Origin: an uncultured Acidobacteriaceae bacterium
GTDB taxonomy: Bacteria; Acidobacteriota; Terriglobia; Bryobacterales; Bryobacteraceae
DNA: 64,000 bases
Direction of reading: 5' to 3'
Assembly: GCA_963795425.1 (NCBI GenBank)
Contig: CAWCHO010000001.1
Coordinates: forward strand, 339,086 to 403,085
Both the position numbers and the translations under genes were made by a program. The notes beneath the pieces are model-generated. The model saw only the letters and a list, made by a program, of their open reading frames with translations. It was not told where the DNA came from and searched no databases. This document shows positions 6,678 to 26,415 of this stretch, piece by piece. Positions within the stretch are counted from its first letter, which is position 1. Every line of letters begins with the position of its first letter.

Positions 6678-6682
6678 GTTCC

Positions 6683-9156: not shown

Positions 9157-9160
9157 GCGT

Positions 9161-11209
9161 TTAGTAATTCAGATGGAAATTGAGGATTCCCCAGTAGAGC
9201 AAAATCCAGGAGAAACCGATGCAGGCGAGCGCGACGGCAGTGGCGAACAATCTGCTCCATAACTGACGCCCGCGGGGCGTGATAGGCGATGCGGGAGCAG
9301 TTTCCGGCGCGCGAGAATCCCGTGGGGTAGAGCGCCAGACCAGCCATGCATAATAGATCGCGACGAATGTGCCGATCACCGCGAGGATTCCCAAAAATTG
9401 CAAAAGATGGATCCACTTATCCAGAGAATCGTTGAGAGCCGTAATGTCATCGCTCTTCGAGAACACCGCAACGAATCCGGCGACTACGATGAGATCGAGC
9501 AGACAGATCAGGCGCGTGAGCAGGCGCAGGCGGCGTTCGCGAGGAGCCCATTCGAGGCGTGCGCGGTAATGCCTGCGCACCAAAGGCGAGATGGGCCAGA
9601 AGAGTACGGCGAGAATGAGGATCGCGAGGCTTGTAAAGAGGACAAAGTAATTGAACGGCTTTGATTGGAGAACGCCGACCTTCTGGAACACCATGAAGGG
9701 GAAGTCAATGCCGAAATTGGTCCTTCCGTCATAGCCCCGGTAGAACGCGATTTTTTCCTGTCCGTCGACATTCTGATAAACCCTTGGAGCGATCTCGCGG
9801 AATTTCATCGGTTTCCCATTGAAGCCATGCAGTTCCTCAACGGTGACAGTGCCGTCGGACCCGGGCTTGACTTTTGTCTCGCCGGGCATTGAGCTGACGA
9901 AAAGGAAGTTGCCTTCGAGGCGACGGCTGACCATGTAATCACCGGCGACTTGCTTCGCGTCAGAAGAGGCGGACGAGATGGCGGGCGGCGTGGGAGTGCG
10001 ATACGGAAAGTAGCGATCCAGGAAAAACTGCCAGAGGGCGGTGCGATCGCTGATGGTACTCTTACCGGCACTGTTGTAAGAGACAAAAAAGCCGAGGTTC
10101 GCATCGGGCATCAGATGGAGATCGCTGTGAAAGTAGAGCGTGTCTCCTCCATGTCCGATGATGCGGTGACCATTTCTGGTCTCTTCATAGAAGCCCAGGC
10201 ACATCGCATTGAGCGCGTCTCCAGCGGGCAACGCCTGACGCGTGTGCATCATTTGAACCGTTTGCGGCTTCAGGATTTGGGCCCCATTGTATTGCCCATT
10301 TTGAAGGTGCGCCATCATAAAGTGCGTCATGTCCATGGCCGAAACCGCACTGCTTCCAGCGGGCCACGGCTGTATGTACTCGTAGTCCTTCGCGGGTTCC
10401 GAAGCGGTCTTGTAGCCGCACGACATGAGGTCCTTCAGATTGGCCGGAAGAGGCTGATCGAAGGTGCAATGCTGCATGCCGAGAGGCTTGAAAATGTTGT
10501 CTGCAATGTACTGATCAAATGGCTTGCCGGACACCCGCTGAACAATGTAGCCCGCGAGCGTAGTTGCATAGTTTGAGTAAGCGGGCGTGGTACCGGGCGG
10601 GAATATGCGTGCCGGCATATGGTCGATCACATAGGTACGCAGAGGGGTGAGTTTTTTGGGATCGCTCACCCACATGTCCTTGGCAGTCTCACTGAAGCCC
10701 GCGCTGTGAGTCATGATATTGCGCAAGGTGATGGGCTTGTCGAACTTGGCGGGAACTTTGAAATCCAGATAGTCATTCACGTCGCGATCGAGGTCGAGCT
10801 TTCCTTGCTCGACTTGCTGCATGACTGCGGTCCAGGTGAATAGTTTCGAGATGGATCCGGGGCGGAAGAGAGTATCGGTGGGCGAGACGGGCTTTTTGGA
10901 TTTCACGTCGGCGTAGCCGTAGCCTTTTGCGAAAATCACCTTGCCGTCTTTGACAATGGTGATCACCGCGCCGGCGATGTCGTCGCGCTCGAGCGAGAGC
11001 GGCATGAGGCCATCGAGGAACGCTTCGATGTCGGCACTTTCGAGTGCATGCGTGGAGGTGGGAGCGTTTGCCTCGATCTTCGGCTCAGGTTGAGGCTTGG
11101 GAACGAGTGGACCTTGCTTCAGGGTTTGCGAAGCGGCCGCAAACACCGCGATGAGTATTACGACGGCGACACGGACGTGCGCGGCAGAGCCAAGCTTTTT
11201 AGGGGGCAT
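9161..11209 (-). CDS. Beta-lactamase-fold serine hydrolase fused to a C-terminal multi-TM domain
   Basis: Signal peptide, SxxK 'GSISKLF', YxN 'YSNYA', 'GHGGDT'. The last roughly 170 residues contain about four hydrophobic helices. Confidence 0.85.
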   Translation of the reverse strand: MPPKKLGSAAHVRVAVVILIAVFAAASQTLKQGPLVPKPQPEPKIEANAPTSTHALESADIEAFLDGLMPLSLERDDIAGAVITIVKDGKVIFAKGYGYADVKSKKPVSPTDTLFRPGSISKLFTWTAVMQQVEQGKLDLDRDVNDYLDFKVPAKFDKPITLRNIMTHSAGFSETAKDMWVSDPKKLTPLRTYVIDHMPARIFPPGTTPAYSNYATTLAGYIVQRVSGKPFDQYIADNIFKPLGMQHCTFDQPLPANLKDLMSCGYKTASEPAKDYEYIQPWPAGSSAVSAMDMTHFMMAHLQNGQYNGAQILKPQTVQMMHTRQALPAGDALNAMCLGFYEETRNGHRIIGHGGDTLYFHSDLHLMPDANLGFFVSYNSAGKSTISDRTALWQFFLDRYFPYRTPTPPAISSASSDAKQVAGDYMVSRRLEGNFLFVSSMPGETKVKPGSDGTVTVEELHGFNGKPMKFREIAPRVYQNVDGQEKIAFYRGYDGRTNFGIDFPFMVFQKVGVLQSKPFNYFVLFTSLAILILAVLFWPISPLVRRHYRARLEWAPRERRLRLLTRLICLLDLIVVAGFVAVFSKSDDITALNDSLDKWIHLLQFLGILAVIGTFVAIYYAWLVWRSTPRDSRAPETAPASPITPRGRQLWSRLFATAVALACIGFSWILLYWGILNFHLNY

Positions 11210-11235
11210 AAAGGTTTTCTGTAATCAGCTAGCGA

Positions 11236-14200
11236 TCAAAAATTCAACTTCAAAGCGAATTGGATAATGCGCGGATTGACGGCGAGCGAGGTAATCTGGC
11301 CCAAAGCTGGAGACGAATAGTCCGTGACCGGATTTGAGAACTGCGGGTGATTGAAGGCATTGAAGAACTCCGCGCGGAATTCCAGATTCGCCTTCTCATT
11401 CGGCCAGCCCAGGGGGAAATGCTTTGCAGCTGAAACGTCCCAGTTATCCTGCGGCGGTCCGGTTACGATGCCGACGCCGCTGTTTCCGAATCCAGTGCCT
11501 ATGCCGTCAGCGCCGATGATGGGAGGCGGCGCGAGGCAGCTCGTGTTGAAGTAGTTGTTCAATTTACTTTGGATAGAACCGGGAGTGACAAGCTGACCGT
11601 AAGTGCAGCCAGACGCGATCTCGGCACGATCGTAGGAGATCCCAAACACGTTGTTCGCGTTATCACCGTTCAGGAGCGTAAGGCGTTGGCCGGATTGAAT
11701 GGTGGTTACTCCGGCGATGGACCATCCGCCCGCCACCTGCGCTAGAAATGACTTCGAGTTCTTCAGCCACGGCAGCTCGTATACGTAACTGACGACGAGG
11801 CGGTGCTCGCGGATGAACTCGTCCGGTCCGTAGCGAGACGCAGGGCTATTCTGGTTGCCGGTGGCCAAACCACCGTTGGCATTGTCGCTGGTGGAGGTAT
11901 CCGTCGCAAGATCGCGCGCGAAGGTGTAAGCCACCAGAAATTGCAGGCCATTACTGAAGCGCTTGTTGAGGCTTACCTCGAGCGAGTTATACCAGGACGC
12001 GCCAGCGGACTCGATCTCCTGGATCCCCGGGTATGACGCCCATCCCTCAATCGGAACGCGCAGCGGGACGTTGGCGACGGTGTTGGTGGTTTGGCCCCGG
12101 ATAGGATTCTGCGCGCTGGCGAGAGAAGCCTGATTTAACGAGCGTTCATTAAGAAGGTGCAAGCCGCGCTGGCCCACGTATCCGACTTCCAGCACGAGAT
12201 CTTTGGTGAGCTGCGTTTGCAGATTCATGTTGTAGGTCTGGATCAACGGCGGGCGAAAATTGGCTGCAAAGGTGGTGGTGGAGAAAGCCGTCGAAGGCGT
12301 ATAGGGAGTGAAGGACGGAAGGGTCGGGACTGGCGGGAAGGGATTCTGCAGGGTCGCTGCGGCATTGGGCGCGCCGACTAACTCGCGTAGATCTGCAAAC
12401 GGCTGACCGGTGAGCAGTTGGATGAAGGGTTGCCCGGTGATGCGCGAGCGGAAGGTGCCGTAGCCGCCGCGCAGCACGAAACGCTCCGTGTGAGGCAGCC
12501 GGTAGGCAAAACCGATACGCGGATTCCAGGTGTTTTGACCGTTGCCATTGATTCCCAGATTGTTGCCGATCTGCGTGACGCCGGGCGGTATGGTTCCCTG
12601 ATAATTTGAGGGGACAACATATCCAGCGAGGCTGCCCGTGGCGGGTGGATTGGGATTGGCGAGGCCGAAATTGAAGGCGCTGTTGCGGCCGAGATTATCG
12701 CCCTGATCGCCTAAACGCTCATAGCGGAAGCCGAGGTTAAGCGTCAAGCGCTCGCTGACCTTGAAATCGTCCTGAATAAACGCGTCGCCGTCGAGAATTC
12801 GCCAGCGGCGATCGAAGAGGCCGGGGAGATCGATCGAGAGGTAAACATTGCTAAACAGGCCCGTGCCATTCTGCGCGCCGTTTAAGCCGAGTAAGAAATC
12901 GGGGAAGCTGAGAAATAACATCCCGCCGAAGTAATGAAAGTCGGTGAGGTCGTTATAGTAGCGGGAAATGCCGCCGCCAAAGCGGAGCGAGTGGCGCCCC
13001 AGAGTATAAGAAAGAACATCCTTTACGCTATACGTGGTGCGCTCCAACTGCTGACCCTGCCCATTGCCCCCGAGCGCGAGAGACCCGTTGAATCCGATTA
13101 CGGGCACCACGTTGTCAAACGGTGCTGCGGTGATCCCGACGTCGGAGTAATTGAATGCTTCCTTCTGATCGAGACTCAAGGGTACGAGGGTAAAAGCGAA
13201 ATCGGCTTCGTTAAATAAATTGGGACCGAAAGAGTAGCTATGCGAAAACGACAGATTGTAGAACTTTACGCTCGTGATGGCAGGGAAGCCCGGCGAGGTG
13301 GTTCCCACTTGCGACATGGGCAGAGTGACATTCTGGTTATCGTTGCCGACAAAGAATCTGACTGAAAACTTACTCTTTTCGCTCTGTAAGTAGTCACCGT
13401 TCGCAAGGTACTGATCTTCGCTGAACGAACAGGGAACGCTGAACGCCGAGAAGCCCTGGACGGCGAAAGGCTTCGAGGGATTGACCGTTTGGGGCGTGGG
13501 AATGAGGTACTGGCCGTTGGGAAGCTTGTATTGGAGGAGCGCGAGCGCCGCTGGATTAATATTCGAGCCATCGGCGGCAATCGCCGGACCGACACCCCCG
13601 AACGCATTTTGGAGCACTCCTCGCTGGCCGGCGAAGAGCTTGCCGATGGCCGCGGCGGAACGATCATTTGTAAAGGGCGGGCTTGAAAAGGCCGAAGAGC
13701 ATTGGGACCCAAGGCCGTTCAGCTGGCGCGTGCCCTGATAGGAACCAAAAAAGAAGATCTTGTCTTTCTTGATGGGACCTCCAAAGGTAGCTCCGAACTG
13801 ATTTTGACGGAGGATTCCTTTAGGCTGACCGGTCTCATTCAAGAAAAAATCATTGGCATTCAGTTTTTCATTGCGGAAGTACTCCCAAAGACTCCCGTGA
13901 AATTGATTGGTGCCGCTTTTCGTAATGACATTAACGTTGGCTCCGGCGTCTCGGCCAGAAGCAGCGTCGTACTGTCCGGTTTGCACCTTAAACTCTTGAA
14001 TCGCGTCGGGATTCGGAATCGGGATGCCACCGCTAAAACTGCCGCTCGCCTGAATGTCATTGACGTCGACACCATCCATCTGGAAATTGTTATCTGATGT
14101 TGTACTGCCATGCGAAACGGTCGCCGGTGCCCCCGCAACCTGTCCCGTGCCTCCGCGGCCCAGATCCGCCGCGTTGTTCACGTCGGTGGAAATGCCTGGA

Positions 14201-14691
14201 TTGAGACCAATAATTTGTGTGTAATTGCGGGTCACGAGAGGCAGTGCGTTGATGGCCTCGGTGGAGGTGACGCGACCGAGCGCGGTGGTATCGGTTTGCA
14301 GCTGTTCGGACGCCGCTTCGACTGTCAATTGCTGGTTGGTTTGCCCGATTTCGAGGTGTGTCACCAGAGCGTCGGTCTCGGTAACCACGACCTGGACACC
14401 TTCCTGAATACTGACCTTGAAACCTGGCTTGGTGGTCTCGACACGATACCCGCCCGGAGGCAGCAACGGAACGACCCAATTGCCATTCGCCTGTGAGACT
14501 GTGTTGCGTGTCTCACCCGTAGACTGACTGACGACCTTCACCTGAGCGCCCGCCACCAGCGCGCCCGAGGGGTCAACGATAGTACCGGAGAGCGCACCCG
14601 TGCCGGAAGTCTGGCCCGAGCTCGGGAGGACGCTCAGAATCAGAACGCCAGCCCAAAGTGAAACGAACGTCGCAGCGCGAAAGCTCAACAT
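11236..14691 (-). CDS. TonB-dependent receptor, acidobacterial type with CarboxypepD_reg-like N-domain
   Basis: Signal peptide MLSFRAATFVSLWAGV..., then 'GALSGTIVDPSGALVAGAQVKV'. The body is beta-rich and over 1100 aa, and it ends '...ALKLNF'. An alternative upstream ATG is at 14733. Confidence 0.85.
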   Translation of the reverse strand: MLSFRAATFVSLWAGVLILSVLPSSGQTSGTGALSGTIVDPSGALVAGAQVKVVSQSTGETRNTVSQANGNWVVPLLPPGGYRVETTKPGFKVSIQEGVQVVVTETDALVTHLEIGQTNQQLTVEAASEQLQTDTTALGRVTSTEAINALPLVTRNYTQIIGLNPGISTDVNNAADLGRGGTGQVAGAPATVSHGSTTSDNNFQMDGVDVNDIQASGSFSGGIPIPNPDAIQEFKVQTGQYDAASGRDAGANVNVITKSGTNQFHGSLWEYFRNEKLNANDFFLNETGQPKGILRQNQFGATFGGPIKKDKIFFFGSYQGTRQLNGLGSQCSSAFSSPPFTNDRSAAAIGKLFAGQRGVLQNAFGGVGPAIAADGSNINPAALALLQYKLPNGQYLIPTPQTVNPSKPFAVQGFSAFSVPCSFSEDQYLANGDYLQSEKSKFSVRFFVGNDNQNVTLPMSQVGTTSPGFPAITSVKFYNLSFSHSYSFGPNLFNEADFAFTLVPLSLDQKEAFNYSDVGITAAPFDNVVPVIGFNGSLALGGNGQGQQLERTTYSVKDVLSYTLGRHSLRFGGGISRYYNDLTDFHYFGGMLFLSFPDFLLGLNGAQNGTGLFSNVYLSIDLPGLFDRRWRILDGDAFIQDDFKVSERLTLNLGFRYERLGDQGDNLGRNSAFNFGLANPNPPATGSLAGYVVPSNYQGTIPPGVTQIGNNLGINGNGQNTWNPRIGFAYRLPHTERFVLRGGYGTFRSRITGQPFIQLLTGQPFADLRELVGAPNAAATLQNPFPPVPTLPSFTPYTPSTAFSTTTFAANFRPPLIQTYNMNLQTQLTKDLVLEVGYVGQRGLHLLNERSLNQASLASAQNPIRGQTTNTVANVPLRVPIEGWASYPGIQEIESAGASWYNSLEVSLNKRFSNGLQFLVAYTFARDLATDTSTSDNANGGLATGNQNSPASRYGPDEFIREHRLVVSYVYELPWLKNSKSFLAQVAGGWSIAGVTTIQSGQRLTLLNGDNANNVFGISYDRAEIASGCTYGQLVTPGSIQSKLNNYFNTSCLAPPPIIGADGIGTGFGNSGVGIVTGPPQDNWDVSAAKHFPLGWPNEKANLEFRAEFFNAFNHPQFSNPVTDYSSPALGQITSLAVNPRIIQFALKLNF

Positions 14692-14868
14692 AACCTGCCC
14701 CTTTTCGGAAGGCCGCTTGGCCCCGACTTGCACGGAAGATGCCTGGCCGGCGAAGCTCGGCTCCGCGAATCTCCGCGTTAAGTAAATTAGAGAAAGTGTG
14801 CACCAACTGTTGCACCCTTGTCAAGTGCGCGGTAAATAGATTGAGACGGCCCCTGGCGGGCGTGCCGA

Positions 14869-15777
14869 TTACGGGTCGTGGTTCTGATACCAGCGCGCCC
14901 CGGAAGTGTACTCCTGTTCGTTGCGGCGCAGGCGCTCGAGCGTCCGCTTGGGGTGTATGTGTGCGACCGCGGAAATGATGGCATTGATGGCCGCGAGCGG
15001 CGCGACGTAAGAGCCGGTGAATACGGTACTCGAGATCGGCGTCACGATATGTTCATCGCAGAATCGCGCAATCGGGGTAACCTCGCTATCAGTGATGCCG
15101 AAAGTGAATACACCGCGCGATTTGGCGTGCCGAACGCTCTCGACGGTATCGCGCAGACAGCGCCCGAAGCTGATCGCGATTAGCAGATCTGTCTTATCGA
15201 GCAGATCCACGGTGTGCCGCAAGTTGCCCGAGCTTCCGGTTGGCGCGTCGGAGTAAAAGCCCTGTACGCGGAGACTGTAGGCGAACGCTCCAGCAAGAAA
15301 CGCGGCGAAATCCACGCCAATCACTAGAGTTCGCTGCGATTTTTGAATACGTTCGGCGACGAGCAAGATGCGAGTGGTATCGAGGCCCGCCAAGAGAGCT
15401 GTCAGGTTTTCCGTGTCGCGCTCGATATTGTGTCGAATTCTATCCGCCAAGGGGCGCCGGTCACGGGTGGTGGCGCGCATGACGGTATAGGGCGTAATGC
15501 GAGTCACGAAATGGTTCCGCAAATCGCTGGCAAAGTCGGCGAAGCGGTCATAACCGAGCGCCTGAATCGTACGTACGATTGTGGCCGCGTTGACGTTGTA
15601 TCGTTTGGCGAGTTCCCGGGAGGAAAGGAAGTAATTATCCTCCGGGTGCTCGAGGATGGACCGGATCAGATCGCGACGGCTGCCGTTCAACTTGCGCTGA
15701 GCCTGAGCGAAGCGCGTCTCGAGCTCCGTCGCAGATCTCACTGGAGCTCGGTCGTGTGCCTCACCTCGGACGGGCAT
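14869..15777 (-). CDS. RpiR/MurR-family transcriptional regulator (HTH + SIS domain)
   Basis: N-terminal 'SSRELAKRYNVNAATIVRTIQALGY' HTH_6-like segment, followed by a SIS-like phosphosugar-binding half. Confidence 0.85.
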   Translation of the reverse strand: MPVRGEAHDRAPVRSATELETRFAQAQRKLNGSRRDLIRSILEHPEDNYFLSSRELAKRYNVNAATIVRTIQALGYDRFADFASDLRNHFVTRITPYTVMRATTRDRRPLADRIRHNIERDTENLTALLAGLDTTRILLVAERIQKSQRTLVIGVDFAAFLAGAFAYSLRVQGFYSDAPTGSSGNLRHTVDLLDKTDLLIAISFGRCLRDTVESVRHAKSRGVFTFGITDSEVTPIARFCDEHIVTPISSTVFTGSYVAPLAAINAIISAVAHIHPKRTLERLRRNEQEYTSGARWYQNHDP

Positions 15778-15895
15778 GTGTCTCTCCGAACCGGGACGGA
15801 CCAGGTTAGATGCCGCAGAATAGCAGAAAAGACGGGACGGTGCAATATGTGTTGCACGCCCCCGGGGTTTTCAAATCGTTTCGGCCTCCGTCGTT

Positions 15896-18049
15896 CTAGA
15901 ATTTGCTGCGAACGCCTTCCCCGATCTGCTCCTGTTGTTTCAGCGTGCGGTCAAAGAAGTCTGCAGTGGCGCCGTAAGCCCTGATGAAGCTCTTCCACAT
16001 CAGGAATCCATGAATCTCGTCAGGCAATACCAGCTGCTCAAAAGGCACGTGATTATCACGCAGCCGCTGCGCCAGATCCACGGTCTGCTCGAAGGGAACG
16101 TTGCGGTCGTCGTCGCCCTGAATCAGCAGCACGGGCGAGCGCCAGCTATTGACGTATGCATCCGGCGAGGATTCCCACGCGAGCTTGACGGCAGCCTCTG
16201 TATCGGGAGGCCGCAGCGCGAGATTGCCAAAATCCGGCCGCTGTGTCAGAAACACCGACCAATCGTGCACGCCGTGAAAGTCTACTCCTGCCTTGAAAAT
16301 ATCGGAGTTCTTTGCTAATCCCATGGCGGTTAGGAACCCGCCGTACGATCCGCCCCACAAGCCCACGCGTTGCGAATCGACTTGCGGCAGCGCCTGCAAG
16401 TATTTGGCGGCGGCAACGATGTCTTTATATTCGGCTGCGCCGCGCCATATGGTATTCGGTGCCTCACGGAAGTCGCGCCCATACATGACGCCGAGCCGGT
16501 AGTTCACCGAGAGCACCTCGTATCCTCGGCTAGCGAGGTACTGGTTCATCGCATAGGCGTCGTGATAGTAGTCCATGTAGTGGAAGCCGAGCAGCATTTG
16601 CCGAACGGGCCCACCGTGCATAAAGACTAGGCCGGGCAATTTCTTGCCTGCTGCATTCTTCGGGACAAAAAGTTGTCCGTGCAGCGTCACTCCGTCTTCG
16701 CTTTTGAAGATCACCTGTTGCGGTGTAACCAACTGTGCACTGGGGAAAGTTTCGGGAAGCGCCTGCCTGGCAAACATCTCGCGGCCGTGCCCGGTGAGCG
16801 CGTACGGCATTGCCGGCGAGGTTGCGGTCGAACCGAGGCACACGATTTTGTCGCCATTCTCAGTGACGACCGGAGACCACTCGATGGTCGCTCCCTGCGC
16901 GAGCGGTTGCTGCGGCTGACCGCCTGCTGCCTGAACACGCCAAATGTGACGTCGATCAACATCATCCTGGTTGGAGCTATAGATCACCCACTTCCGGTCG
17001 GGACTGAGAACAACGTCTTCCACGTCGAAATCGCCGGGCGTGAGCAGCACCGGCGCGCCACCAACTACGGGGATTGAATAAAGGTGGTTGCGCCCGTCCT
17101 GCTCAGAAGCAAAAACTATGCGGTTGTCGCCGAAAGAAAACGAACCATCCTCAGTGAGCTCGGGTAAGGAATCGCGCGGCGCGATGCCGCTGTGCCAAAG
17201 CTCGTGACCTTGTCCACTCGTTGCGTCGGCAATCCATATTGCCCATGGCCTGGGTCTTACCGGGATTAGCGGTTCCTTCTGCTCGGTACCGTTGGTCTTC
17301 ACATACGCGATCCACTTGCTGTCGGCGGACCAGCGCGGCAGGTCGTCTTTATCCACGCTCGGTGCAAGATAGTGCAGGAAGTGAGCGCCCAGACCGTACA
17401 CGCCGATGAAGTTGTGATCGCCGCGATCGCTGACGAACGCGATGCTATTCGAATCCGGAGACCATTTGGGTTCGCTCACGTTGCCGCGAATGTAGGCCAA
17501 CTCCTTCGCTTGCTGCTTGCCATCCACGCTCGCCAGCCAAAGCTTCTTCTTCGCCGCCCAAACCGCCCACTTTCCGTCAGGTGAGATTTCAATATCCTCG
17601 CAACCTTCTTCCGGACAACCCATTTCACCCAGAAGGCGTGGCGGCTCAGTCGAATCGACATCCTTCGCCCAAACCTGTTGCTTGGGCTGATGGACGCTGT
17701 GGTCGGGATCGGCGCTCTCGCCTTGCTCGTTCAGCTCACTGCCTCGCGCATAAAGAATGGTTCTGTCATCGGGCGTCAGCCGTAAGCTGGCAATCGGCTG
17801 CCCGTCATCGCCGGTATAGTGAGTCACCTGGCGTGCTGTCCGAGCGAAGTCAGGCCCATCCGCCACCCATACGTTGCGTTCACCCTTCGCATCGAAGACC
17901 CAGGCCACACGGCTGCCCCGTTTGGCCGCCGTGAGTTCAGAAGGAAACGGCGAGCTCATTACTTGCTCGAGAGTGAATGTCTGCGGCGATGCGGAAATCG
18001 AGAAAAAGAAAACAGCAGCAACTGCAAGTAAGAGTTTGTGTGGTCGCAT
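15896..18049 (-). CDS. S9-family serine peptidase (beta-propeller + prolyl-oligopeptidase-type hydrolase), exported
   Basis: Signal peptide, TolB/DPP-like WD-type repeats (WSPD..), nucleophile elbow 'GLWGGSYGG', distal 'GDDDRNVP' and 'DEIHGF' catalytic Asp/His regions. Confidence 0.9.
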   Translation of the reverse strand: MRPHKLLLAVAAVFFFSISASPQTFTLEQVMSSPFPSELTAAKRGSRVAWVFDAKGERNVWVADGPDFARTARQVTHYTGDDGQPIASLRLTPDDRTILYARGSELNEQGESADPDHSVHQPKQQVWAKDVDSTEPPRLLGEMGCPEEGCEDIEISPDGKWAVWAAKKKLWLASVDGKQQAKELAYIRGNVSEPKWSPDSNSIAFVSDRGDHNFIGVYGLGAHFLHYLAPSVDKDDLPRWSADSKWIAYVKTNGTEQKEPLIPVRPRPWAIWIADATSGQGHELWHSGIAPRDSLPELTEDGSFSFGDNRIVFASEQDGRNHLYSIPVVGGAPVLLTPGDFDVEDVVLSPDRKWVIYSSNQDDVDRRHIWRVQAAGGQPQQPLAQGATIEWSPVVTENGDKIVCLGSTATSPAMPYALTGHGREMFARQALPETFPSAQLVTPQQVIFKSEDGVTLHGQLFVPKNAAGKKLPGLVFMHGGPVRQMLLGFHYMDYYHDAYAMNQYLASRGYEVLSVNYRLGVMYGRDFREAPNTIWRGAAEYKDIVAAAKYLQALPQVDSQRVGLWGGSYGGFLTAMGLAKNSDIFKAGVDFHGVHDWSVFLTQRPDFGNLALRPPDTEAAVKLAWESSPDAYVNSWRSPVLLIQGDDDRNVPFEQTVDLAQRLRDNHVPFEQLVLPDEIHGFLMWKSFIRAYGATADFFDRTLKQQEQIGEGVRSKF

Positions 18050-18118
18050 AAACTGCTCAGTCTAACGCCAACTGTTTCGCGAGTCTCTCGAACGGTCGAC
18101 TTCGTGCCGGCTGGAGTC

Positions 18119-21100
18119 TCAATTCTGGTTTTGCCAGCCGGGCCTGCGTAAGACTTTGCCGGCCTTCGTCCCCGTCAGTTGCCCAGCTTCGTATTCAAGC
18201 TGCCCGTTAACAAAGACATACTTGACGCCCTCTGAAAGTTGAGTTGGATCTTTGTAAGTTGCCCTGTCTTCGATTGTTCGCCGATCGAAGATGGTGATAT
18301 CGCCGAAGTAGCCTTCCTTTAGCAAACCCCGATCGTGTAGACCTTCTCGCTGAGCAGGCAATGACGTCATCTTCCGAATGGCCTCCGAAAGCGGGAGCAG
18401 ATGCTCATCGCGGACGTAGTGCCCTAAGAAACGCGGCATTGATCCGTAAGCCCGCGGGTGATCGTGTGGCTCGAACAGCGAACCGTCTAGTGATTTCTCG
18501 GACGCATCGAGGCAGAGACTGGTCCAAGGCTGCTTCAGACCGTAGCGCAAGTCGTCCTCGCTCGCGATGAAATAGATCGCGCCCGTCTCAGCCTTGTCAT
18601 CTACAACCAGATCCATCAAAGCATCTAATGGATCTTTTTTCTGTGCGGCCGCGATCTCGGCGATAGTCTTGCCGTCGAATTTTTTAAGCTGAGGATTTTG
18701 GATGCCGGAAACTAGAACTCCACTCCCGCCTCCGCTATCGAGATACAGGTTTTCCCAATCCTGATGATCTGAAGCCATTTCTTTCTTGATCTTCGAGCGC
18801 GTCGCAGCGTCACCCAGTCTTTCGAGGAGCTTTTGAGACCCACCTTCGGCTACCCAGGGCGGCAAGCTCGCCGCCAATGACGTGCCGCCTGCAACGTAAG
18901 GATACATGTCCGCCGAGACATCTTGTCCCGAATCGCGCGCGGCCTGAATCATCCCGACGATCTTTGGCATCGATCCCCAGCGACTCTTGCCGATGACTTT
19001 CAAATGGAAGATTTCTACCGGAAGGTGTGCCTCCCGTCCTATGCGTACCGCCTCGTCGATGGCGGCAATTTCGCTTTGACCTTCGCTGCGCATGTGCGTG
19101 CCGTAAATTCCGCCGTATTGAGCAGCTACTTTTGCCAGCTCGATCAGTTCGTCGGTCCTGGCATAATGGCCGGGCGGATAGATGAGAGCCGTAGAAATTC
19201 CAAACGCTCCCTGTTGCATGGCTTCAGCGACCAGCGCTTTCATCTTCATGAGCTCTTCGGGAGTAGGGGCCCGGTCCGCATGGCCCAAAATGGCCTCTCG
19301 CACCTGAGCTGCGCCCACATAGGTCCCAATGTTTAGAGGAGTTCCGACTTTTTCAAGCCTTTCGAAGTACCCATTCAGAGTGGTCCAGTCCACTTTCAAG
19401 TGAAATTGATTGAGCTGCGGCGCAAGGTCGGCAAGCGTGATGGCGTTTTGAGGAGCAATCGAATTTCCCTCGCCCGTAATTTCCGTCGTAATGCCTTGCG
19501 ACAACTTGCTCAACGCGCGATTGTCGATCAGAAGAGCCACTTCGGATTGGCCGAGCATGTCAATGAAACCCGGTGAGACTACCAGACCAGAGGCATCGAT
19601 TACGCGCTTGGCTTTCGCGTCGCGCAGGTTCCCGATAGCGGCAATCCGGTCACCGTTGATGGCGACATCGGCGGAAATCCAAGGATTCCCGGAGCCGTCG
19701 ATAAGTTTTCCGTTTCTGATGAGGACGTCATAGACCGTGCCGCTCTGGTTTTGAGGCTCCGATTCGACTGGCGCGTCATAAGCCGCGGCCGCGACCTCCC
19801 CCACAGCTTCCCCGGGGATCCTTTGTAGCGCGTCGGCATCGCCCTTTGGGACAGCGACCATGTTCACGTAAATCGCGAATGCGAGGTGCTGTCCATGAGC
19901 AGTTTGCATGTAACCGGCCAGTCCCTTGCCCGTGACCATGACGTTGTTGTTCAACGCGTCCAGGACGGCATATGTCCCGGTTTTGGCGTGTACGTGGCCG
20001 GCAGCGGGCGAGTTCACTTGAATTTTGAACAGAGTGCCATCGCGTCCTAAGATAGGCAGCCCTCGGTAAAAAAAGCTGTAGTCCTTCTGCTTCGAAAAGA
20101 AGGTGAGATAACGAACCATGAAATCCGCCGTGAAGAAGGCATTTCCGCCCGCGCCGTCGCTTTGGGATGCAGCAGTCAAATCCAGTCCGGCCTTCTGCAG
20201 AAAGTCATGCTCGAGATGGAAGCCGGCCTGGTCGGTTTCTGTATTTTTATGGCCGACCAGCGCCTCTAGCAGAAAAGGCGTCGTGCTCGCATGTAGATTC
20301 TGGCTCAGCTTCAGTGTGATTTTCACGTCCTCTTTAAAAGGCGGCGAGATATGTTCCGCGACCATGTTCCCGGCGTTGTAGTTCCGCGAGAGTGCTTTGA
20401 AATTCGGCTCTGCTGCGCTAGGCGCAAGCTGTACGTCGATGCCCCTTTGTCTCAATGCCTCGACAAGAACAGTTGCAGCAAAGCGGCTGGGCTTCTGTAC
20501 GGGGTACGCCATCATGCCGAAAGGCTTGCCGAGCGGTATGCTGCCGCTTACCGTAACTGTGTGCGTACCGTCTGGATTGGTCTTATCGGCGGTGTAATCG
20601 ATGTCTGGCCTGGAATCCGGATTCCCGGTGATCGCCTTATTCACAATTTGCACGTACGACGTTGTTGGGGCGATTCGCAGATTGACGGGCGCGCCCTCAG
20701 TAGCTCCCGGACTCGCGACCACATCGATCAAGTTGTCATTGACCACGATGGGCGAAATGACAACCCCTGTTCCTAATTCGCGGGCGCCCTCAGGAAAGAG
20801 ACTGACGTCGACGAGCAAGTGTCCGCTGACCCGCTTGATTCCTTTTTCCGCAATCTGTTTTGCCAACTCATGGATTACCAGCAGCGGATCGGTTCCGACC
20901 CCTTTGCTGGCGGCTCCTCCGTACGAGTGATCCTCATTTTCAAAACCGAGAGTGTCGTCAGGCTGAATACGCCCGGAGAGATTCGGATCTCCGCTGGCAA
21001 CTAGAACCAGGTCACCTTCGAGGGTTCCATCCTTGTTCACAGCACCGTTGCGATAGACGCGGGTGTGAAAACGGTAGTCGGCGCCAAGCAACTCGAGTGC

Positions 21101-21334
21101 TGTGCCTTCCGTTAAGAGCTTGGTAGTCGAACCCGGAACCAGCAGCTTGTCTGGATTCAAACGGTAGATCACCTGTCCGGAATCCAAAGAATAGAATTCG
21201 ATGCCAAACGTGGAGTGCGCGAATTCCGGACGGCCTATGACGTCCCGAATGCGCGCGGATAAAGTCGGCTGCTGTGCGAGAACAATTCCGCTGAGTAGGA
21301 AGCAAACGCAACAGGTTCGCAAAAAAGTACGCAT
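18119..21334 (-). CDS. Fusion protein: S13 PBP4-type D-Ala-D-Ala carboxypeptidase/endopeptidase (N) + D-aminoacylase-like amidohydrolase (C)
   Basis: Residues 1-495: signal peptide, 'PGSTTKLLT' (SxxK), 'SQN', 'HAKTGT' (KTG). There is an acidic/Pro linker at about residues 496-533. Residues 534-1071: 'YDVLIRNGKLIDGSG...INGDRIAAIG', 'YGTHMRSEG', 'IFHLKV', 'HPRAYGSMPRFLGHYVRD', all as in N-acyl-D-amino-acid deacylases. It is a single uninterrupted ORF. Confidence 0.9.
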   Translation of the reverse strand: MRTFLRTCCVCFLLSGIVLAQQPTLSARIRDVIGRPEFAHSTFGIEFYSLDSGQVIYRLNPDKLLVPGSTTKLLTEGTALELLGADYRFHTRVYRNGAVNKDGTLEGDLVLVASGDPNLSGRIQPDDTLGFENEDHSYGGAASKGVGTDPLLVIHELAKQIAEKGIKRVSGHLLVDVSLFPEGARELGTGVVISPIVVNDNLIDVVASPGATEGAPVNLRIAPTTSYVQIVNKAITGNPDSRPDIDYTADKTNPDGTHTVTVSGSIPLGKPFGMMAYPVQKPSRFAATVLVEALRQRGIDVQLAPSAAEPNFKALSRNYNAGNMVAEHISPPFKEDVKITLKLSQNLHASTTPFLLEALVGHKNTETDQAGFHLEHDFLQKAGLDLTAASQSDGAGGNAFFTADFMVRYLTFFSKQKDYSFFYRGLPILGRDGTLFKIQVNSPAAGHVHAKTGTYAVLDALNNNVMVTGKGLAGYMQTAHGQHLAFAIYVNMVAVPKGDADALQRIPGEAVGEVAAAAYDAPVESEPQNQSGTVYDVLIRNGKLIDGSGNPWISADVAINGDRIAAIGNLRDAKAKRVIDASGLVVSPGFIDMLGQSEVALLIDNRALSKLSQGITTEITGEGNSIAPQNAITLADLAPQLNQFHLKVDWTTLNGYFERLEKVGTPLNIGTYVGAAQVREAILGHADRAPTPEELMKMKALVAEAMQQGAFGISTALIYPPGHYARTDELIELAKVAAQYGGIYGTHMRSEGQSEIAAIDEAVRIGREAHLPVEIFHLKVIGKSRWGSMPKIVGMIQAARDSGQDVSADMYPYVAGGTSLAASLPPWVAEGGSQKLLERLGDAATRSKIKKEMASDHQDWENLYLDSGGGSGVLVSGIQNPQLKKFDGKTIAEIAAAQKKDPLDALMDLVVDDKAETGAIYFIASEDDLRYGLKQPWTSLCLDASEKSLDGSLFEPHDHPRAYGSMPRFLGHYVRDEHLLPLSEAIRKMTSLPAQREGLHDRGLLKEGYFGDITIFDRRTIEDRATYKDPTQLSEGVKYVFVNGQLEYEAGQLTGTKAGKVLRRPGWQNQN

Positions 21335-21460
21335 CCGCTGAACAAGGTAGCACTAGTCTCCTTGAACCGGCGGACCAAGCGCTGGAGCGGGAGAAATTCC
21401 TACTCCAACGCTTGTTTCTAACGGCCACTCAGGCGCGAGATGTCGCGAACCGATAAGATC

Positions 21461-24400
21461 TCAGAACCGGAGCATCCCTTTGATCTCGATGAAACGCGGC
21501 GAACTGCCGGCCCCTACGAACGAGCCCAACAGGCTGGTGGGCGGTCCAACTGCGGCGATGCTGTAACCGAACTGAGGATTGGCGACGTCGTTGACCGGCT
21601 GGTCAAAATTCGGATGGTTGAATAGGTTGTACGCCTGAGCGCCGAACGAGAATTTCACGCGTTCAGTGATTGCGATGTCTTTCATGACTGCCATATCGAC
21701 GTCGAAGAAATTCGGACCGCGGAGCGAATTGCGTCCGGCCGTCCCGAAGCCTGTGAGTACCCCGCTAGCCGCATAGCTGGGAGCAAACTGGGACGTGGTG
21801 AGGCAAGCTGTGTTGACTGCGCTCGTGCAGTTCGCCGAGAGAGAAGAAGTGGGCGAAGCAAAAATTGCCCCGGCGTAATTGAACCCTAGCAAGCTATCTA
21901 AGGCGGAGTTGTCGACGGGCGTGAATGGCAGGCCAGTGCGGAAGAACCAGTTGCTCGAGAGCGTCCACCCTCCAAATATCCGATTGGGCCCCCAATGGAA
22001 CCCCGAATGGCGGAACATGTCGGTGAGCACGAAGTTTGCACTCACGTAATGCCGGACGTCGTAATCCGCACTTGCGTAGTTACCTCGAATATTGAACGGG
22101 TTTTGTGGGAGTGTGATGCTGGGGTCGGTATCGAGGATTCCGAATGGGGAATTGGCGACGCCGCCATTTGAGACGTCATCGAGAGCATGGCTCCACGTGT
22201 AATTTAGATTGAAAGTAAGTCCAGCCGATAGCCGTCTCTCCAAGCTGACGGTCAGGCCGTCGTAATTTGAATTGGCAGCGGAAAGATACTGAGCTACCAG
22301 CCCAAGCGCGGGATCGGGCGGCGCGCCAGGCAAACCAGCAAAGCCATTCGGGCATGCGCCCGGAGGGCAATAGGCGTTCAGACCTTCATCCGCGATCGGG
22401 ATGTGACTGCCATGCATTCCAGAGTAATTGAGAGTGAGCACCATCTTAGACGTGATCGCCTGCTCAATTTGAAAGTTCCATTTGTAATAGGTAGGTTGGT
22501 GGAAGTAACTCGGGAAAGAGAAGAAGCTCGGGGCAGCAAAGCCGGGCACTCCCGCGGAGATGGAATTGAAGCTTCCGCCGGAAGCGAACTGCGAGCGCAG
22601 AGCTTGATTCGCCGCCGCCGTGGTGGTAAACAGGCTTCCCGGCACACCGGGCGCGATTGCGCCGTTCCCGATAGTGAATGCATTCAGCCCCGGGGAATTG
22701 AACGCCGCGTCTTCCGCTAAGACGCCCGGCAGTTCGTCGGCGAAGATGCCCGCGCCGGTTCGGATAATGGTGTTACTGCTGCCGAATGGCTTCCACGCTA
22801 TTCCCAACCTGGGTTCCCAGACCACCGTCTGCGTGTTCGCGTAGGCTTGGTGCTGCCCCGAAAGGATGAATTGGTTGTAAGGCGTAGAGGTGGCGTTGGC
22901 GACGGGCGCGCCGTTGAACGTCGTCGCGAGACGAGAGAAGCAATTTGCATCGCAGGTGGGATTCGCGTAGCTTTCGAGACGCAAATTCAAGGAAACCGTC
23001 AGACCATCGCGGATTCTCCAATCGTCGGCGATGTAGCCGCCGAAAGTATTGAAGCGCAAACCCTGTTCGGACGAGGAGGGAAAGGCCTGGTTTAGAGACG
23101 TATTTACCCCTCCTCCGTTAAAGAAGTCGGACAAGTTTGTCGTAACGGATCCGTAGATCGGACCGCCAAGCGCCTGAAAATCGAGATCGGTGATGTTGGA
23201 ATGCAGCCAGCTAAACCCTGCCCGGAAGGTGTGCCTTCCCCGGACATGCGAAAGATCGTCCAGAATCTGATACTGAAACACGCGCCTTCCTTGCGGGAAA
23301 AAGAAGGGGCCGGGCTCGCCCAGAGCGCCAACCGATGAAAAAGCGCCGCCAGAGAAGTTCATGAATGTCGGCAATGCCGTTAGCGCAGCGCTTTCGTTGC
23401 TTGGCGTGAACACCGCTGCGTAGAAGAGCGCGGACCCGCTGAATTGATTCACAGTATTTGGTCCGAACGTGTGCGTCTCACTGACCTGCGCGTTCATTTG
23501 GGGCTGATTGCTTTGAGCGTTAAAGGTCGGGCCAAAGGGACTGGTAAATGACGGCTGATAGCCGTTGTCGCGCAGCACGCGAATGTAGCCGTGATCTTTC
23601 TCGCTAAAGTTGTGGTCAACTCGAGATGACCATTGATACTCCTTGTTGGTATTGGGGGGCGTCGTGCGGAACTCATCCGCGCACGGAACGCCGGTCGGCA
23701 AGCCCGTGAAACCCTGGCACCCGTATCCCTGAGATGCCGGAACTGGAGTGGCCGCGCCAACTCCGGGCGCACCGTTGTAGACGCCAAAGATCTTGTTATA
23801 GAACGGAATCTCGGCGGCTTCCCCGACGGCTGTCAAATTCGCCAAAGTGGCCGCCTGAAATTGCGGACTGGGAACGAGTGTCAACGCACTTGCTGTGGGC
23901 AGCAGATTGCGAAGACCTTCATAATCTACATCGAAGAACGTGTGGTTTTTCCAGATCGGCCCCTGTACGCCTGTAGCCCACTGATTGAAGTTATTAAAAG
24001 GTGTGGGCTGTCCCACTTGGTTACTAAAGAACTGGTTGGCATTCAAGGCGCGGCCATTCCACATATACACCGCGTTGCCATGAAAGTCGTTGCTCGCCGA
24101 CTTTGTGATGTAAGTGACTTGTGAACCTGCATACTGGCCGTACTGCCCCGAATAGGCGCTGTTGATCACATTGGCTTGGGCGATATCATTCGAACCGAGC
24201 AGCAGGTTAGACGCACCGCTGTTATTGATGCCAGAAAAGGGATCATTGTAATTCTGGCCGTTGATACTGAACAGGTTCGACGTGCCAGGCATTCCGTCGG
24301 CCACGAAGTTACCATAACCGGCCTGTGTGTTCATCACCACGCCAGGCGCAGTCTGCGCCACGTACGTGATATCACCGCCGGGATTCGGCAAGTTCTGAAT

Positions 24401-24859
24401 CATCTGAGTGTTGAATGTCGTCGTTGTGTCCGCATTTTGAGTTTGCAGCGCGGTGACAGATTCAGTGACTTCGACTGTTTGCCGCGACGACGCTAATGTA
24501 AGTTGCAAATTCGCAGACGTAGGTTGTCCGGCGACTACGACGATATTGTTGATACTTTTGGGCTGAAAACCCGATCCAGTGACTTGTAATTTGTAAGTGC
24601 CGGGTGCGACAAATGCAAACCGGTAGTCACCGTGAGCGCCAGTCTGCGCCGTTTGCGAGGTGTTTGTGGCTAATCCGGTCAAGGTGACCGTGGCGGCCGG
24701 AACTGCGCCGCCGCTCGGATCTGTGATGACGCCGGTGATGGCGCCCGTCGTAATGGACTGTGCAAAGACGCCGGTAGGTAAGACGAGGGCGATGAGGCAG
24801 CGCTTTAGAAGTTTAGACAGCGTACCCGGATGGCGGGGTCTCTTCGAGTCATGTTGCAT
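21461..24859 (-). CDS. TonB-dependent receptor, CarboxypepD_reg type
   Basis: Signal peptide, 'GAITGVITDPSGGAVPAATVTL', 1132-aa beta-rich body, terminal '...KGMLRF'. Confidence 0.85.
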   Translation of the reverse strand: MQHDSKRPRHPGTLSKLLKRCLIALVLPTGVFAQSITTGAITGVITDPSGGAVPAATVTLTGLATNTSQTAQTGAHGDYRFAFVAPGTYKLQVTGSGFQPKSINNIVVVAGQPTSANLQLTLASSRQTVEVTESVTALQTQNADTTTTFNTQMIQNLPNPGGDITYVAQTAPGVVMNTQAGYGNFVADGMPGTSNLFSINGQNYNDPFSGINNSGASNLLLGSNDIAQANVINSAYSGQYGQYAGSQVTYITKSASNDFHGNAVYMWNGRALNANQFFSNQVGQPTPFNNFNQWATGVQGPIWKNHTFFDVDYEGLRNLLPTASALTLVPSPQFQAATLANLTAVGEAAEIPFYNKIFGVYNGAPGVGAATPVPASQGYGCQGFTGLPTGVPCADEFRTTPPNTNKEYQWSSRVDHNFSEKDHGYIRVLRDNGYQPSFTSPFGPTFNAQSNQPQMNAQVSETHTFGPNTVNQFSGSALFYAAVFTPSNESAALTALPTFMNFSGGAFSSVGALGEPGPFFFPQGRRVFQYQILDDLSHVRGRHTFRAGFSWLHSNITDLDFQALGGPIYGSVTTNLSDFFNGGGVNTSLNQAFPSSSEQGLRFNTFGGYIADDWRIRDGLTVSLNLRLESYANPTCDANCFSRLATTFNGAPVANATSTPYNQFILSGQHQAYANTQTVVWEPRLGIAWKPFGSSNTIIRTGAGIFADELPGVLAEDAAFNSPGLNAFTIGNGAIAPGVPGSLFTTTAAANQALRSQFASGGSFNSISAGVPGFAAPSFFSFPSYFHQPTYYKWNFQIEQAITSKMVLTLNYSGMHGSHIPIADEGLNAYCPPGACPNGFAGLPGAPPDPALGLVAQYLSAANSNYDGLTVSLERRLSAGLTFNLNYTWSHALDDVSNGGVANSPFGILDTDPSITLPQNPFNIRGNYASADYDVRHYVSANFVLTDMFRHSGFHWGPNRIFGGWTLSSNWFFRTGLPFTPVDNSALDSLLGFNYAGAIFASPTSSLSANCTSAVNTACLTTSQFAPSYAASGVLTGFGTAGRNSLRGPNFFDVDMAVMKDIAITERVKFSFGAQAYNLFNHPNFDQPVNDVANPQFGYSIAAVGPPTSLLGSFVGAGSSPRFIEIKGMLRF

Positions 24860-25144
24860 AGTAAGGCTCCTGGCAACGAAGGAACTCTCGAGGTTTTCAG
24901 CGCGAACCCAAATCTCAGATTGCAGTTATTTCGCTGGCCGTAATAGATTGCGAGTAAAGCAGTGTAACGGCTCTAGAATTCCGCCAACGGAGAATTGCTT
25001 TTTGATTCACTGAAAGACCTTGGAGCGAGTTGCGTAACCCGATTTTGCCACCGACTGAGGCTGTCAATCGCGCACATTCGGCCACCTCGGAGCAGAATCG
25101 GACAGAAAACAGCTTCAAAGGTCCAGGGTGGCCCGGTAAGCAGT

Positions 25145-26059: not shown

Positions 26060-26415
26060 TCCCGCAGGGAGGAGGCAATGCCAGAGGTTCTATCGCAACC
26101 TCCACAAGAGCTATCTCTTCGACGGAAAACGAGCCGTTTGTCCTTGGACTAACGACGCAGCCATCGCTGCGCCGGGGTACGGTGGCCATCGCAGTAAGAA
26201 ATTCTAGTGTGCGGATTTGGCACGGCGTTCTGTTCACGACCACACAGCCGAAACGCGTTGGGATGAATTCATCCACAGCCCTACGCCGAGAAGCTGTGGG
26301 CGTATGATTACATGTGCCCTTGCCGCCACTCTGCGGTGATGGGATCTCGCGATTTATTCGCTGACCGGTAAGGCTGCGCGATCCGGGCTGGAGAGATTAA
26401 AAGGGCTTGCATCCC

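Follow-up and report, generated by a model that had tools for sequence, protein, structure and literature searches.

A gene for a fused DD-peptidase and amidohydrolase

We analysed a 64,000-nucleotide stretch of DNA (hereafter the window; assembly GCA_963795425.1, contig CAWCHO010000001.1, positions 339,086 to 403,085) from an uncultured Acidobacteriaceae bacterium, and in it the gene at 18119..21334, whose product joins a PBP4-type DD-peptidase (N-half) to a D-aminoacylase-like amidohydrolase (C-half). The gene lies on the minus strand, which a preliminary description of the window had left unstated, and all parts of the gene given below by coordinate are on that strand. Its open reading frame (ORF) starts with ATG and runs through 1071 codons with zero internal stops to a stop codon at 18119-18121, as checked by translation, and an identical protein (P0001) is present in a public collection on a 1.29-Mb contig. 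The single uninterrupted 1071-aa ORF described earlier was recovered exactly, and the signal peptide claimed with it was recognised by its hydrophobicity. Residues 1-20 (MRTFLRTCCVCFLLSGIVLA; 21275..21334), which are followed by QQ, form a predicted Sec signal peptide with a signal-peptide-like hydrophobic core (KD12 = 2.78), as judged by a crude hydrophobicity measure and not by a dedicated predictor; cleavage is likely after VLA. This region shows 7% identity among homologues, yet it is hydrophobic in every one of them.

The fusion gene is real, not an assembly artefact, and it is not rare. At least 120 full-length homologues (1039-1114 aa, 70-79% identity) turned up among 5.8 billion proteins in a word-indexed search; all of them carry both PF02113 and PF07969, and they stem from independent NCBI, JGI, ENA and Logan assemblies. 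Relatives were found in at least 592 species-level genomes in a GTDB scan with one genome per species, and the best 80 of these were all full-length, at 59-79% identity. The hosts are nearly all Acidobacteriota of the class Terriglobia (Terriglobales, Acidoferrum, Korobacter, subdivisions gp1 and gp2), mostly metagenome-assembled genomes (MAGs) from soil or peat. One continuous ORF (median 1080 aa) crossed the junction between the two halves in 60/60 related loci of at least 20 kb. A mis-assembly or a missed stop at the junction was ruled out by these loci and by the database proteins, among which the stop or frameshift in the linker that had been named as a possible flaw did not occur. Occasional broken copies or sequencing errors do exist, as shown by P0124 (628 aa), which passes the linker into the amidohydrolase domain and then continues into unrelated sequence. 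When 1.84 billion representatives (50% clustering) were searched exhaustively with HMMER, the whole fusion family came down to one of them (P0121); the fusion is therefore a single clade, whose inheritance was probably vertical. The fusion genes of loci L018, L021, L026, L066 and L077 are 60-69% identical to acidobacterial ones and come from MAGs titled Eisenbacteria, Saccharimonadales, Betaproteobacteria and Cybelea, which are probably mis-binned or mislabelled contigs.

Structural models were built with AlphaFold (AF2). A first model, made from 47 close homologues, was discarded as poor (predicted local distance difference test, pLDDT, 60.8; predicted template modelling score, pTM, 0.38), and a second one, made from 149 diverse sequences, was used throughout (pLDDT 92.5, pTM 0.61). 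With Foldseek, no solved structure was found to span both halves: the query-normalised template modelling (TM) score of the full-length model was at most 0.42, compared to 0.73-0.91 for each half alone.

The DD-peptidase half and the linker

The N-terminal domain (residues 26-520, including a C-terminal helix at 502-520; 19775..21259) was recognised as a Peptidase_S13/PBP4-type DD-peptidase by Pfam, TIGR00666 and Foldseek. Peptidase_S13 (PF02113) matched residues 26-492 with an E-value of 1.3e-58 (199.3 bits against a cut-off of 22.8), and the NCBIfam PBP4 equivalog TIGR00666 was passed as well (162.5 against a cut-off of 107.8). The score for NF008322, the equivalog model of enterobacterial DacB, stayed below its cut-off (111 against 527), which makes the N-half an S13 member and not a DacB equivalog. 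In a PDB search it matched B. subtilis PBP4a, H. influenzae and E. coli PBP4 and the R39 DD-peptidase with E-values of 9e-24 to 2e-17, and its part of the model adopts the three-domain PBP4/R39 fold, superposing on 1W79, 1W5D, 2EX2 and 3A3D at TM scores of 0.73-0.82 (Foldseek).

The three catalytic motifs assigned earlier to residues 1-495 were all found: SxxK as S69-T-T-K72 (acylation serine and general-base lysine; 21119..21130), SxN as S344-Q-N346 (20297..20305) and KTG as K451-T-G453 (19976..19984). Each is invariant in 120/120 closer homologues and in 56/56 species-level homologues. By family and motifs the N-half is a complete PBP4/S13 serine DD-peptidase, with the activity predicted. 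The full S13 profile and the motifs are shared with PBP4-type class C low-molecular-weight penicillin-binding proteins (MEROPS S13: Actinomadura R39, PBP4a, DacB), as are the signal peptide and the three-domain fold. The fusion differs from these proteins by a C-terminal extension of ~540 aa that forms a second enzyme, and the identity of its N-half to solved S13 PBP4-type structures is only 19-25%.

The linker between the halves turned out shorter than the ~38 residues (496-533; DNA 19736-19849) proposed in the preliminary description, because residues 502-520 form a conserved, confidently modelled helix (pLDDT ~96) that is common to stand-alone S13 proteins. One such stand-alone homologue, P0125, terminates just past the equivalent of this helix. 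The true inter-domain linker comprises ~13 residues (521-533, APVESEPQNQSGT; 19736..19774), is variable (19% identity among homologues) and disordered, and contains in its core (526-531) the only segment of the model with a pLDDT below 50. Linkers in relatives measure 8-38 aa (median 15) and are rich in Ala, Ser, Pro and Thr.

An altered metal site in the amidohydrolase half

The C-terminal domain (residues 534-1071; 18122..19735) is a D-aminoacylase-like amidohydrolase according to phmmer searches against the PDB, PF07969 and Foldseek. Pfam Amidohydro_3 (PF07969) matched residues 577-1046 (E-value 2.6e-21), residues 531-1066 matched the Alcaligenes D-aminoacylase (1M7J/1RJP) at an E-value of 4e-90, and the model of this half superposed on 1M7J, 9G5M, 3GIP and 9KB1 at TM scores of 0.89-0.91 (Foldseek). 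It consists of an N- plus C-terminal beta-sandwich and a (beta/alpha)8 barrel with an alpha/beta lid inserted after beta7. The possibility that the C-half is not an amidohydrolase was thereby discounted on the strength of the 1M7J match and the superpositions. The earlier assignment of residues 534-1071 to the pattern of deacylases of N-acyl-D-amino acids was borne out for the fold; it did not hold for the canonical metal pattern, as the HxH motif and the Cys are absent.

Canonical D-aminoacylases belong to subtype V, with a Cys/His/His beta-site metal, an Asp after strand 8 and HxH after strand 1 (PMC12017989, PMC12149444). The 'DSHTHDD' of canonical enzymes reads 'DMLGQSE' in the C-half, with L594-G-Q596 (19547..19555) aligned to the HxH of 1M7J at the end of barrel strand 1; both His are lost, and every homologue of the two sets (120/120 and 56/56) has the replacement. 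At the end of barrel strand 2, the metal-bridging Cys96 is replaced by Glu622 (19469..19471), a predicted metal ligand, with a one-residue deletion ('GNCG' to 'GE-G'); this position is occupied by 119 E and one D in the 120 homologues and by E in 56/56. Two further predicted ligands are conserved and align with those of AfDam, namely His747 (19094..19096), a beta-site ligand equivalent to His220, and His777 of the motif His777-Leu-Lys779 (18998..19006), equivalent to the metal ligand His250. Lys779 corresponds to Lys252 of AfDam, a carboxylate and ligand contact (for the roles of His250 and Lys252, see PMC12017989). Asp943 (18506..18508), which follows barrel strand 8 and is predicted to be the catalytic general base, is equivalent to Asp366 of AfDam and invariant in 120/120 and 56/56 homologues. 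It aligns with a universal [ST]D of 121/122 relatives (MAFFT); D950, which a pairwise phmmer alignment had paired with the catalytic Asp, was ruled out by this family alignment. Active sites of the amidohydrolase superfamily lie at the C-terminal ends of the barrel strands, and in the model L594, E622, H747, H777 and D943 are found at or just after the strand C-ends 590-595, 615-620, 743-747, 773-775 and 938-940.

The set of residues that binds the substrate alpha-carboxylate and amide is kept in the C-half (Tyr719, Lys779, Tyr811-Pro-Tyr813, Arg961, Arg968). Y811-P-Y813 (18896..18904), the 'YPY' motif that according to PMC12149444 acts as a hinge and binds the carboxylate, is kept in the Glu-type and Cys-type clades alike. 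Arg961 in H959-P-R961 (18452..18460; conserved in 56/56) corresponds to Arg377 of AfDam, which binds the substrate carboxylate (PMC12017989, PMC12149444).

Overall, the C-half shares with AfDam and other canonical D-aminoacylases the fold including beta-sandwich and inserted lid, the catalytic Asp, the two beta-site His, YPY, the Lys and the Arg. It differs from them in the exchange of the bridging Cys for Glu and in the loss of both HxH His, while the fusion as a whole differs in being exported and not cytoplasmic and in being joined to a DD-peptidase. The stretch from YPY to the catalytic Asp exceeds that of AfDam by ~45 aa, as in most relatives. The nearest curated subfamily model, the D-glutamate-deacylase-like NF006560 (NCBIfam), was not reached (201 against a cut-off of 340). 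Because the Cys and HxH are absent and this cut-off was missed, we file the C-half as a Glu-type variant of the D-aminoacylase fold family and not as a canonical D-aminoacylase, and we infer that it is a mononuclear Glu/His/His metallo-hydrolase.

Two groups of enzymes offer precedents. NagA and other enzymes of family CE9 resemble the C-half in the predicted ligand set only (Glu, His and His, a catalytic Asp and no HxH), and their sites are catalytically competent. They form a different family acting on a sugar phosphate, and the C-half is not a member of the NagA family by sequence, with a marginal local match to 3EGJ (E-value 7.5e-4, residues 546-593); the Glu ligand of NagA also comes from a different barrel strand. 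The Glu/His/His metal site of CE9 enzymes is described in PMC12017989. The absence of the bridging Cys is also described for the 'cluster B' D-acylases (Gox1177 and those of Microbacterium natoriense and Streptomyces); these are members of the D-aminoacylase family whose D-acylase activity has been demonstrated, and none of them has been reported as a fusion (PMC12149444).

Conservation of both catalytic sites

All 15 tested catalytic and binding residues were identical in 56/56 species-level homologues at 60-80% identity and, with the exception of the one E-to-D change, in 120/120 closer homologues. Mean identity among the fusions was 72% in the amidohydrolase half, 62% in the S13 half and 19% in the linker. 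Both halves are under purifying selection, and the higher conservation of the amidohydrolase half runs counter to the trend expected of a decaying domain.

The Glu-type clade and its other fusions

The metal site was then compared across 121 representatives of the C-half family (50% clustering). Glu at position 622 was found in 10 proteins with HxH and 36 without it, while among proteins without this Glu 74 had HxH and a single one lacked it, so that HxH loss occurs almost only together with Glu at 622 (Fisher p = 2e-20). The Cys was present in 71/75 of the non-Glu proteins. Because HxH loss is coupled to Glu622 across the representatives, the change of the metal site is systematic and not the result of decay. 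A hydrophobic leader of at least 18 aa was predicted for 29/39 Glu-type proteins compared to 3/71 of the other (Cys-type) proteins (Fisher p = 7e-15), and multidomain proteins of at least 700 aa made up 16/46 and 1/75, respectively (Fisher p = 3e-7). By these counts, the Glu-type site marks an exported, fusion-prone clade. The swap of a thiolate for a carboxylate ligand (Cys to Glu, with HxH loss) suggests an adaptation to the oxidising periplasm.

The clade includes P0122, a stand-alone exported copy of the C-half domain that is 71% identical and has the same metal site. In other members Pfam identified a range of fusion partners, among them an S12 beta-lactamase fold (N-terminal in P0132 and P0173, C-terminal in P0166 and P0209), Beta-lactamase2 (P0153, P0162), the D-Ala-D-Ala dipeptidase Peptidase_M15 (P0151), the dipeptidase Peptidase_M19 (P0137) and the MurNAc-L-Ala amidase Amidase_3 (P0216). 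Further partners were a protein-L-isoaspartate (D-aspartate) O-methyltransferase (PCMT; P0139), a hint of a connection with peptides that are damaged or contain D-Asp, a PIG-L deacetylase (P0127), a cyclophilin (P0145) and an alpha/beta hydrolase (P0187). The Glu-type amidohydrolase domain is duplicated in tandem within one polypeptide in P0123 (1077 aa) and P0126 (955 aa).

A fusion in reverse order, Amidohydro_3 followed by Peptidase_S13, was found in P0232 (999 aa), whose cluster includes a member from Verrucomicrobia. Similar to the acidobacterial fusion, it combines the same two domain families, and its gene has an MR_MLE gene on one side and a TonB-dependent receptor on the other, as in the module described below. 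However, it has the classical HxH and Cys site, the opposite domain order and only 35% identity, and it comes from a different phylum. On these grounds, the pairing of S13 with a D-aminoacylase domain is judged to have arisen at least twice independently.

Gene neighbourhood

The fusion gene lies within a run of genes that are all on the minus strand, as annotated with Pfam and NCBIfam. Its upstream neighbour, at a distance of 126 bp, encodes a 1132-aa outer-membrane barrel of the TonB-dependent-receptor type (CarboxypepD_reg plus OMP_b-brl_4; 21461..24859), whose Pfam family co-matches TonB_dep_Rec_b-barrel on a related protein, and an AraC-family regulator is encoded at 25145-26059. The downstream neighbour, at 69 bp, is an exported S9 serine peptidase with a beta-propeller (15896..18049); its adjacency to the fusion gene is kept in only 4/60 loci, and an S9 gene also stands before the gene for P0132, a fusion of S12, DUF3471 and amidohydrolase. 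A MurR/RpiR-family regulator (HTH_6 plus SIS; 14869..15777) comes next, followed by six tightly packed genes at 4020..14733 with gaps of 26, 4, -31, -28 and 0 bp, which from their spacing are probably an operon. These encode a second outer-membrane barrel (11236-14733), a 682-aa S12 beta-lactamase-fold protein (9161-11209), an amino-acid permease (7804-9156), a full-length N-acylamino-acid racemase (MR_MLE, NAAAR/NSAR; 6683-7834; E-value 1.7e-100 to Deinococcus 1R0M), an exported D-Ala-D-Ala dipeptidase of M15/DdpX type (5631-6710) and an S12 beta-lactamase-fold protein with DUF3471 (4020-5630). Hydrophobic N-termini were found on the hydrolases and barrels and were lacking on the racemase and regulators.

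The NCBIfam label of the racemase, o-succinylbenzoate synthase (TIGR01928), is probably a mis-naming here. The M15 protein is extended at its N-terminus by ~170 aa, which include a hydrophobic segment and match no Pfam domain (its relatives in other loci measure 382-461 aa); this suggests that it is exported or membrane-anchored, unlike the cytoplasmic VanX and DdpX. Three outer-membrane proteins of 1132-1189 aa with CarboxypepD_reg and OMP_b-brl_4 are encoded within 25 kb (11236-14733, 21461-24859 and 32821-36390, all on the minus strand). The first two of these barrels gave no match to NCBIfam, their TonB-dependent nature being read from the Pfam co-matches only.

Recurrence of these genes was counted in the 60 related loci at distances of up to 10 kb from the fusion gene. 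RpiR was present in 36/60, M15 in 23/60 (always upstream and co-directional, often adjacent), the racemase in 19/60, S12 in 18-20/60, a barrel in 15-21/60 and the permease in 12/60; the racemase gene stands directly beside the fusion gene in two other genomes. A gamma-glutamyltranspeptidase was found in 19/60 loci, just downstream on the opposite strand (for example L067:14715-16412, minus strand), and could act on the gamma-D-Glu-meso-diaminopimelate (mDAP) bond or reflect mere synteny. Three of the enzyme types in this gene cluster, S13, S12 plus DUF3471 and M15, are each also covalently fused to a Glu-type amidohydrolase somewhere. Overall, the fusion gene sits in what is predicted to be a module of enzymes acting on D-amino-acid peptides. 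A TonB-dependent transporter beside a D-aminoacylase gene has been noted earlier in marine Gammaproteobacteria (PMC3400609). In a clade of ~60% identity (L053, L065, L079), ilvD-ilvB-ilvN-ilvC precede the M15 and fusion genes on the same strand; they were considered as functional partners and are read as conserved synteny instead.

Proposed function and alternative explanations

We consider it reasonably probable, from domain content, conserved residues and gene context, that the fusion is an exported, periplasmic enzyme, specific to Acidobacteriota of the class Terriglobia, whose two active sites hydrolyse peptides that end in D-amino acids and probably stem from peptidoglycan. The S13 site would serve as a DD-carboxypeptidase or DD-endopeptidase for peptides with D-Ala-D-Ala ends or with D-Ala-mDAP cross-links and would leave a single C-terminal D-Ala whose amino group is acylated by the remaining peptide. 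Such a product would formally be an N-acyl-D-amino acid and would thus fall into the substrate class of the second site. The amidohydrolase site would bind the free alpha-carboxylate and cut the preceding amide by means of the Glu/His/His metal and Asp943, and the two sites jointly would convert a pentapeptide or a cross-linked tetrapeptide to a tripeptide and released D-Ala. Peptidyl acyl groups are plausible for substrates of the C-half, as Gox1177 and Bb3285 reportedly also hydrolyse L-Xaa-D-Xaa dipeptides (work attributed to Cummings and colleagues, 2009). Trimming of D-Ala-terminated peptidoglycan peptides in two periplasmic steps is the likeliest role; the exact sequence of steps, in which a pentapeptide would become a tetrapeptide and then a tripeptide, is a tentative proposal, which we regard as possible but not probable. 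Around the fusion, TonB-type barrels would import D-amino-acid peptides, M15 would cleave D-Ala-D-Ala, the S12 proteins and S9 would attack other D-peptide bonds, the permease would take up released amino acids, the racemase would racemise N-acyl amino acids in the cytoplasm, and the MurR/RpiR regulator would control the surrounding genes. The substrate may come from the cell's own wall turnover or from imported bacterial necromass.

Several observations weigh against this reading. In PpOngB, a Cys-type relative, Ala at either HxH His abolishes activity (PMC12017989), and the loss of both HxH His could be costly to the C-half unless it is compensated. The relative placement of the two domains in the model is uncertain (pTM 0.61). 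The presence of the gene in very many Terriglobia genomes fits housekeeping wall maturation as well as scavenging. A scan of 14500-26500 for promoters and terminators returned counts at the level of shuffled sequence, which leaves gene spacing as the basis for the operon structure. The neighbourhoods vary and none of the genes is universal, the best being RpiR at 60%; the 60 loci also share ancestry, so that the counts are not independent, which is partly offset by the two independent fusions and by several distinct arrangements. Finally, no recognisable module surrounded P0151 (the fusion to M15) or P0137 (the fusion to M19). The preliminary description had proposed a periplasmic bifunctional enzyme that might channel intermediates between its sites. 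Its first part agrees with the conservation of all catalytic residues in both halves, while channelling is left unsupported because the inter-domain geometry is unreliable.

An alternative explanation, which we consider unlikely, is that the protein is the Terriglobia PBP4 and acts in housekeeping maturation of the cell's own sacculus, where the amidohydrolase would trim tetra- to tripeptides (for example to limit the substrates of LD-transpeptidation) with no nutrient role. The chemistry is the same as in the bifunctional hydrolase favoured above; the two readings part only over where the substrate comes from. PBP4 enzymes are classically wall-remodelling, and MurR/RpiR regulators and DdpX, of which the neighbourhood holds a MurR/RpiR-type and a DdpX-type M15 gene, are also linked to recycling of the own wall. 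The distribution over at least 592 species-level genomes looks near-universal in the class, and the single cluster at 50% clustering is consistent with vertical inheritance. However, the repeated TonB-type barrels, the permease, the N-acylamino-acid racemase and the exported peptidases beside the gene point to uptake and catabolism, and stand-alone S13 proteins at 50-59% identity could serve as the housekeeping PBP4.

We hold it to be rather improbable that the gene serves a general catabolism or detoxification of D-peptides and N-acyl-D-amino acids (for example of non-ribosomal peptide antibiotics), with environmental molecules other than peptidoglycan as substrates, S13 as a D-stereospecific peptidase and the C-half as a deacylase. 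The best matches of the several S12 proteins in the cluster include a D-aminopeptidase, an alkaline D-peptidase and AmpH, which would suit such a role, as would the conserved racemase neighbour and the PCMT and M19 dipeptidase fusion partners, which are not specific to peptidoglycan; it has also been proposed that TonB-dependent transporters of marine bacteria carry N-acyl-D-amino-acid derivatives (PMC3400609). Yet the most specific partners (M15, Amidase_3, the MurR-type regulator and S13) are tied to peptidoglycan, and no non-ribosomal-peptide or antibiotic genes were seen within the window.

It is very improbable that the C-half is a catalytically dead binding or scaffolding module. Three canonical metal-site residues (His, His and Cys) are gone, with HxH changed to L-G-Q and Cys96 absent, the NF006560 score of 201 lies below the cut-off, and the PpOngB mutants mentioned above are inactive. 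These points are countered by the invariance of Glu622, His747, His777, Asp943, Lys779, Tyr813 and Arg961, by the better conservation of the C-half compared to the S13 half, by the tight coupling of HxH loss to Glu gain across a large clade, by the stand-alone exported copy P0122 and by enzymes that are active while lacking HxH (NagA) or the Cys (cluster B D-acylases, PMC12149444). A role of the C-half as a de-N-acetylase of a sugar or sugar acid in the manner of OngB is hardly credible, since the closeness of the C-half to PpOngB (TM 0.91, E-value 5e-63) and the presence of PIG-L and Amidase_3 among the fusion partners are set against a higher identity to D-aminoacylases proper (35% versus 27%) and against partners and neighbours that are mostly D-Ala-bond peptidases plus the N-acylamino-acid racemase.

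Returning to the exported bifunctional hydrolase, a bolder extension, which we offer as speculative and doubtful, is that the fusion is the signature of an unrecognised, TonB-import-dependent 'peptidoglycan-peptide (D-peptide) utilisation locus' with which Terriglobia feed on necromass, and that the Glu-type domain is a new periplasmic metallo-LD-carboxypeptidase whose Cys-to-Glu change and HxH loss adapt it to the oxidising periplasm. In such a locus, the Glu-type domain would remove the C-terminal D-Ala of the tetrapeptide in sequence with the DD-peptidase domain, and this LD-carboxypeptidase activity would be unrelated to LdcA, to VanY/M15 enzymes and to the YkuD family.

Novelty and significance

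No description of the fusion or of its gene module was found in the literature searched, in line with the earlier statement that no fusion of this kind was known. Public databases contain many automatically annotated copies, named after one half or the other. Both halves belong to well-studied families; what appears new is the architecture, the exported Glu/His/His variant of the D-aminoacylase site and the surrounding module. The broader pattern, an exported clade lacking both Cys and HxH that is fused to or clustered with DD-peptidase-type enzymes, is more interesting than the single gene.

Acidobacteria are among the most abundant soil bacteria, and bacterial necromass is a major pool of organic nitrogen in soil. 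If the two-step model is true, it would provide a new periplasmic route for the removal of D-Ala from peptidoglycan peptides, a function for a large clade of export-signalled 'amidohydrolase family proteins' that are repeatedly fused to DD-peptidase-like domains, and a molecular handle on the recycling of D-amino-acid-rich bacterial necromass by Acidobacteria. The clade is also a natural experiment on the plasticity of metal sites in the amidohydrolase superfamily, in which Cys to Glu is coupled to HxH loss and export. Should the protein only be a local PBP4 with an additional trimming domain, a useful correction of annotation would still result.

Other genes in the window

Long ORFs without a Pfam match were found at 29358-31220 (620 aa), 37518-38438 (306 aa) and 46185-47987 (600 aa). 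The first of these overlaps the start of the ORF of a beta-helix protein (31121-32809) by ~100 nt, and one of the two starts is probably miscalled. The window also encodes a GH42 beta-galactosidase (38472-40586), an M61 glycyl aminopeptidase (44545-46320) and a GH31 glycosidase (48938-51163), a polymer-degradation gene content that is typical of soil Acidobacteria.

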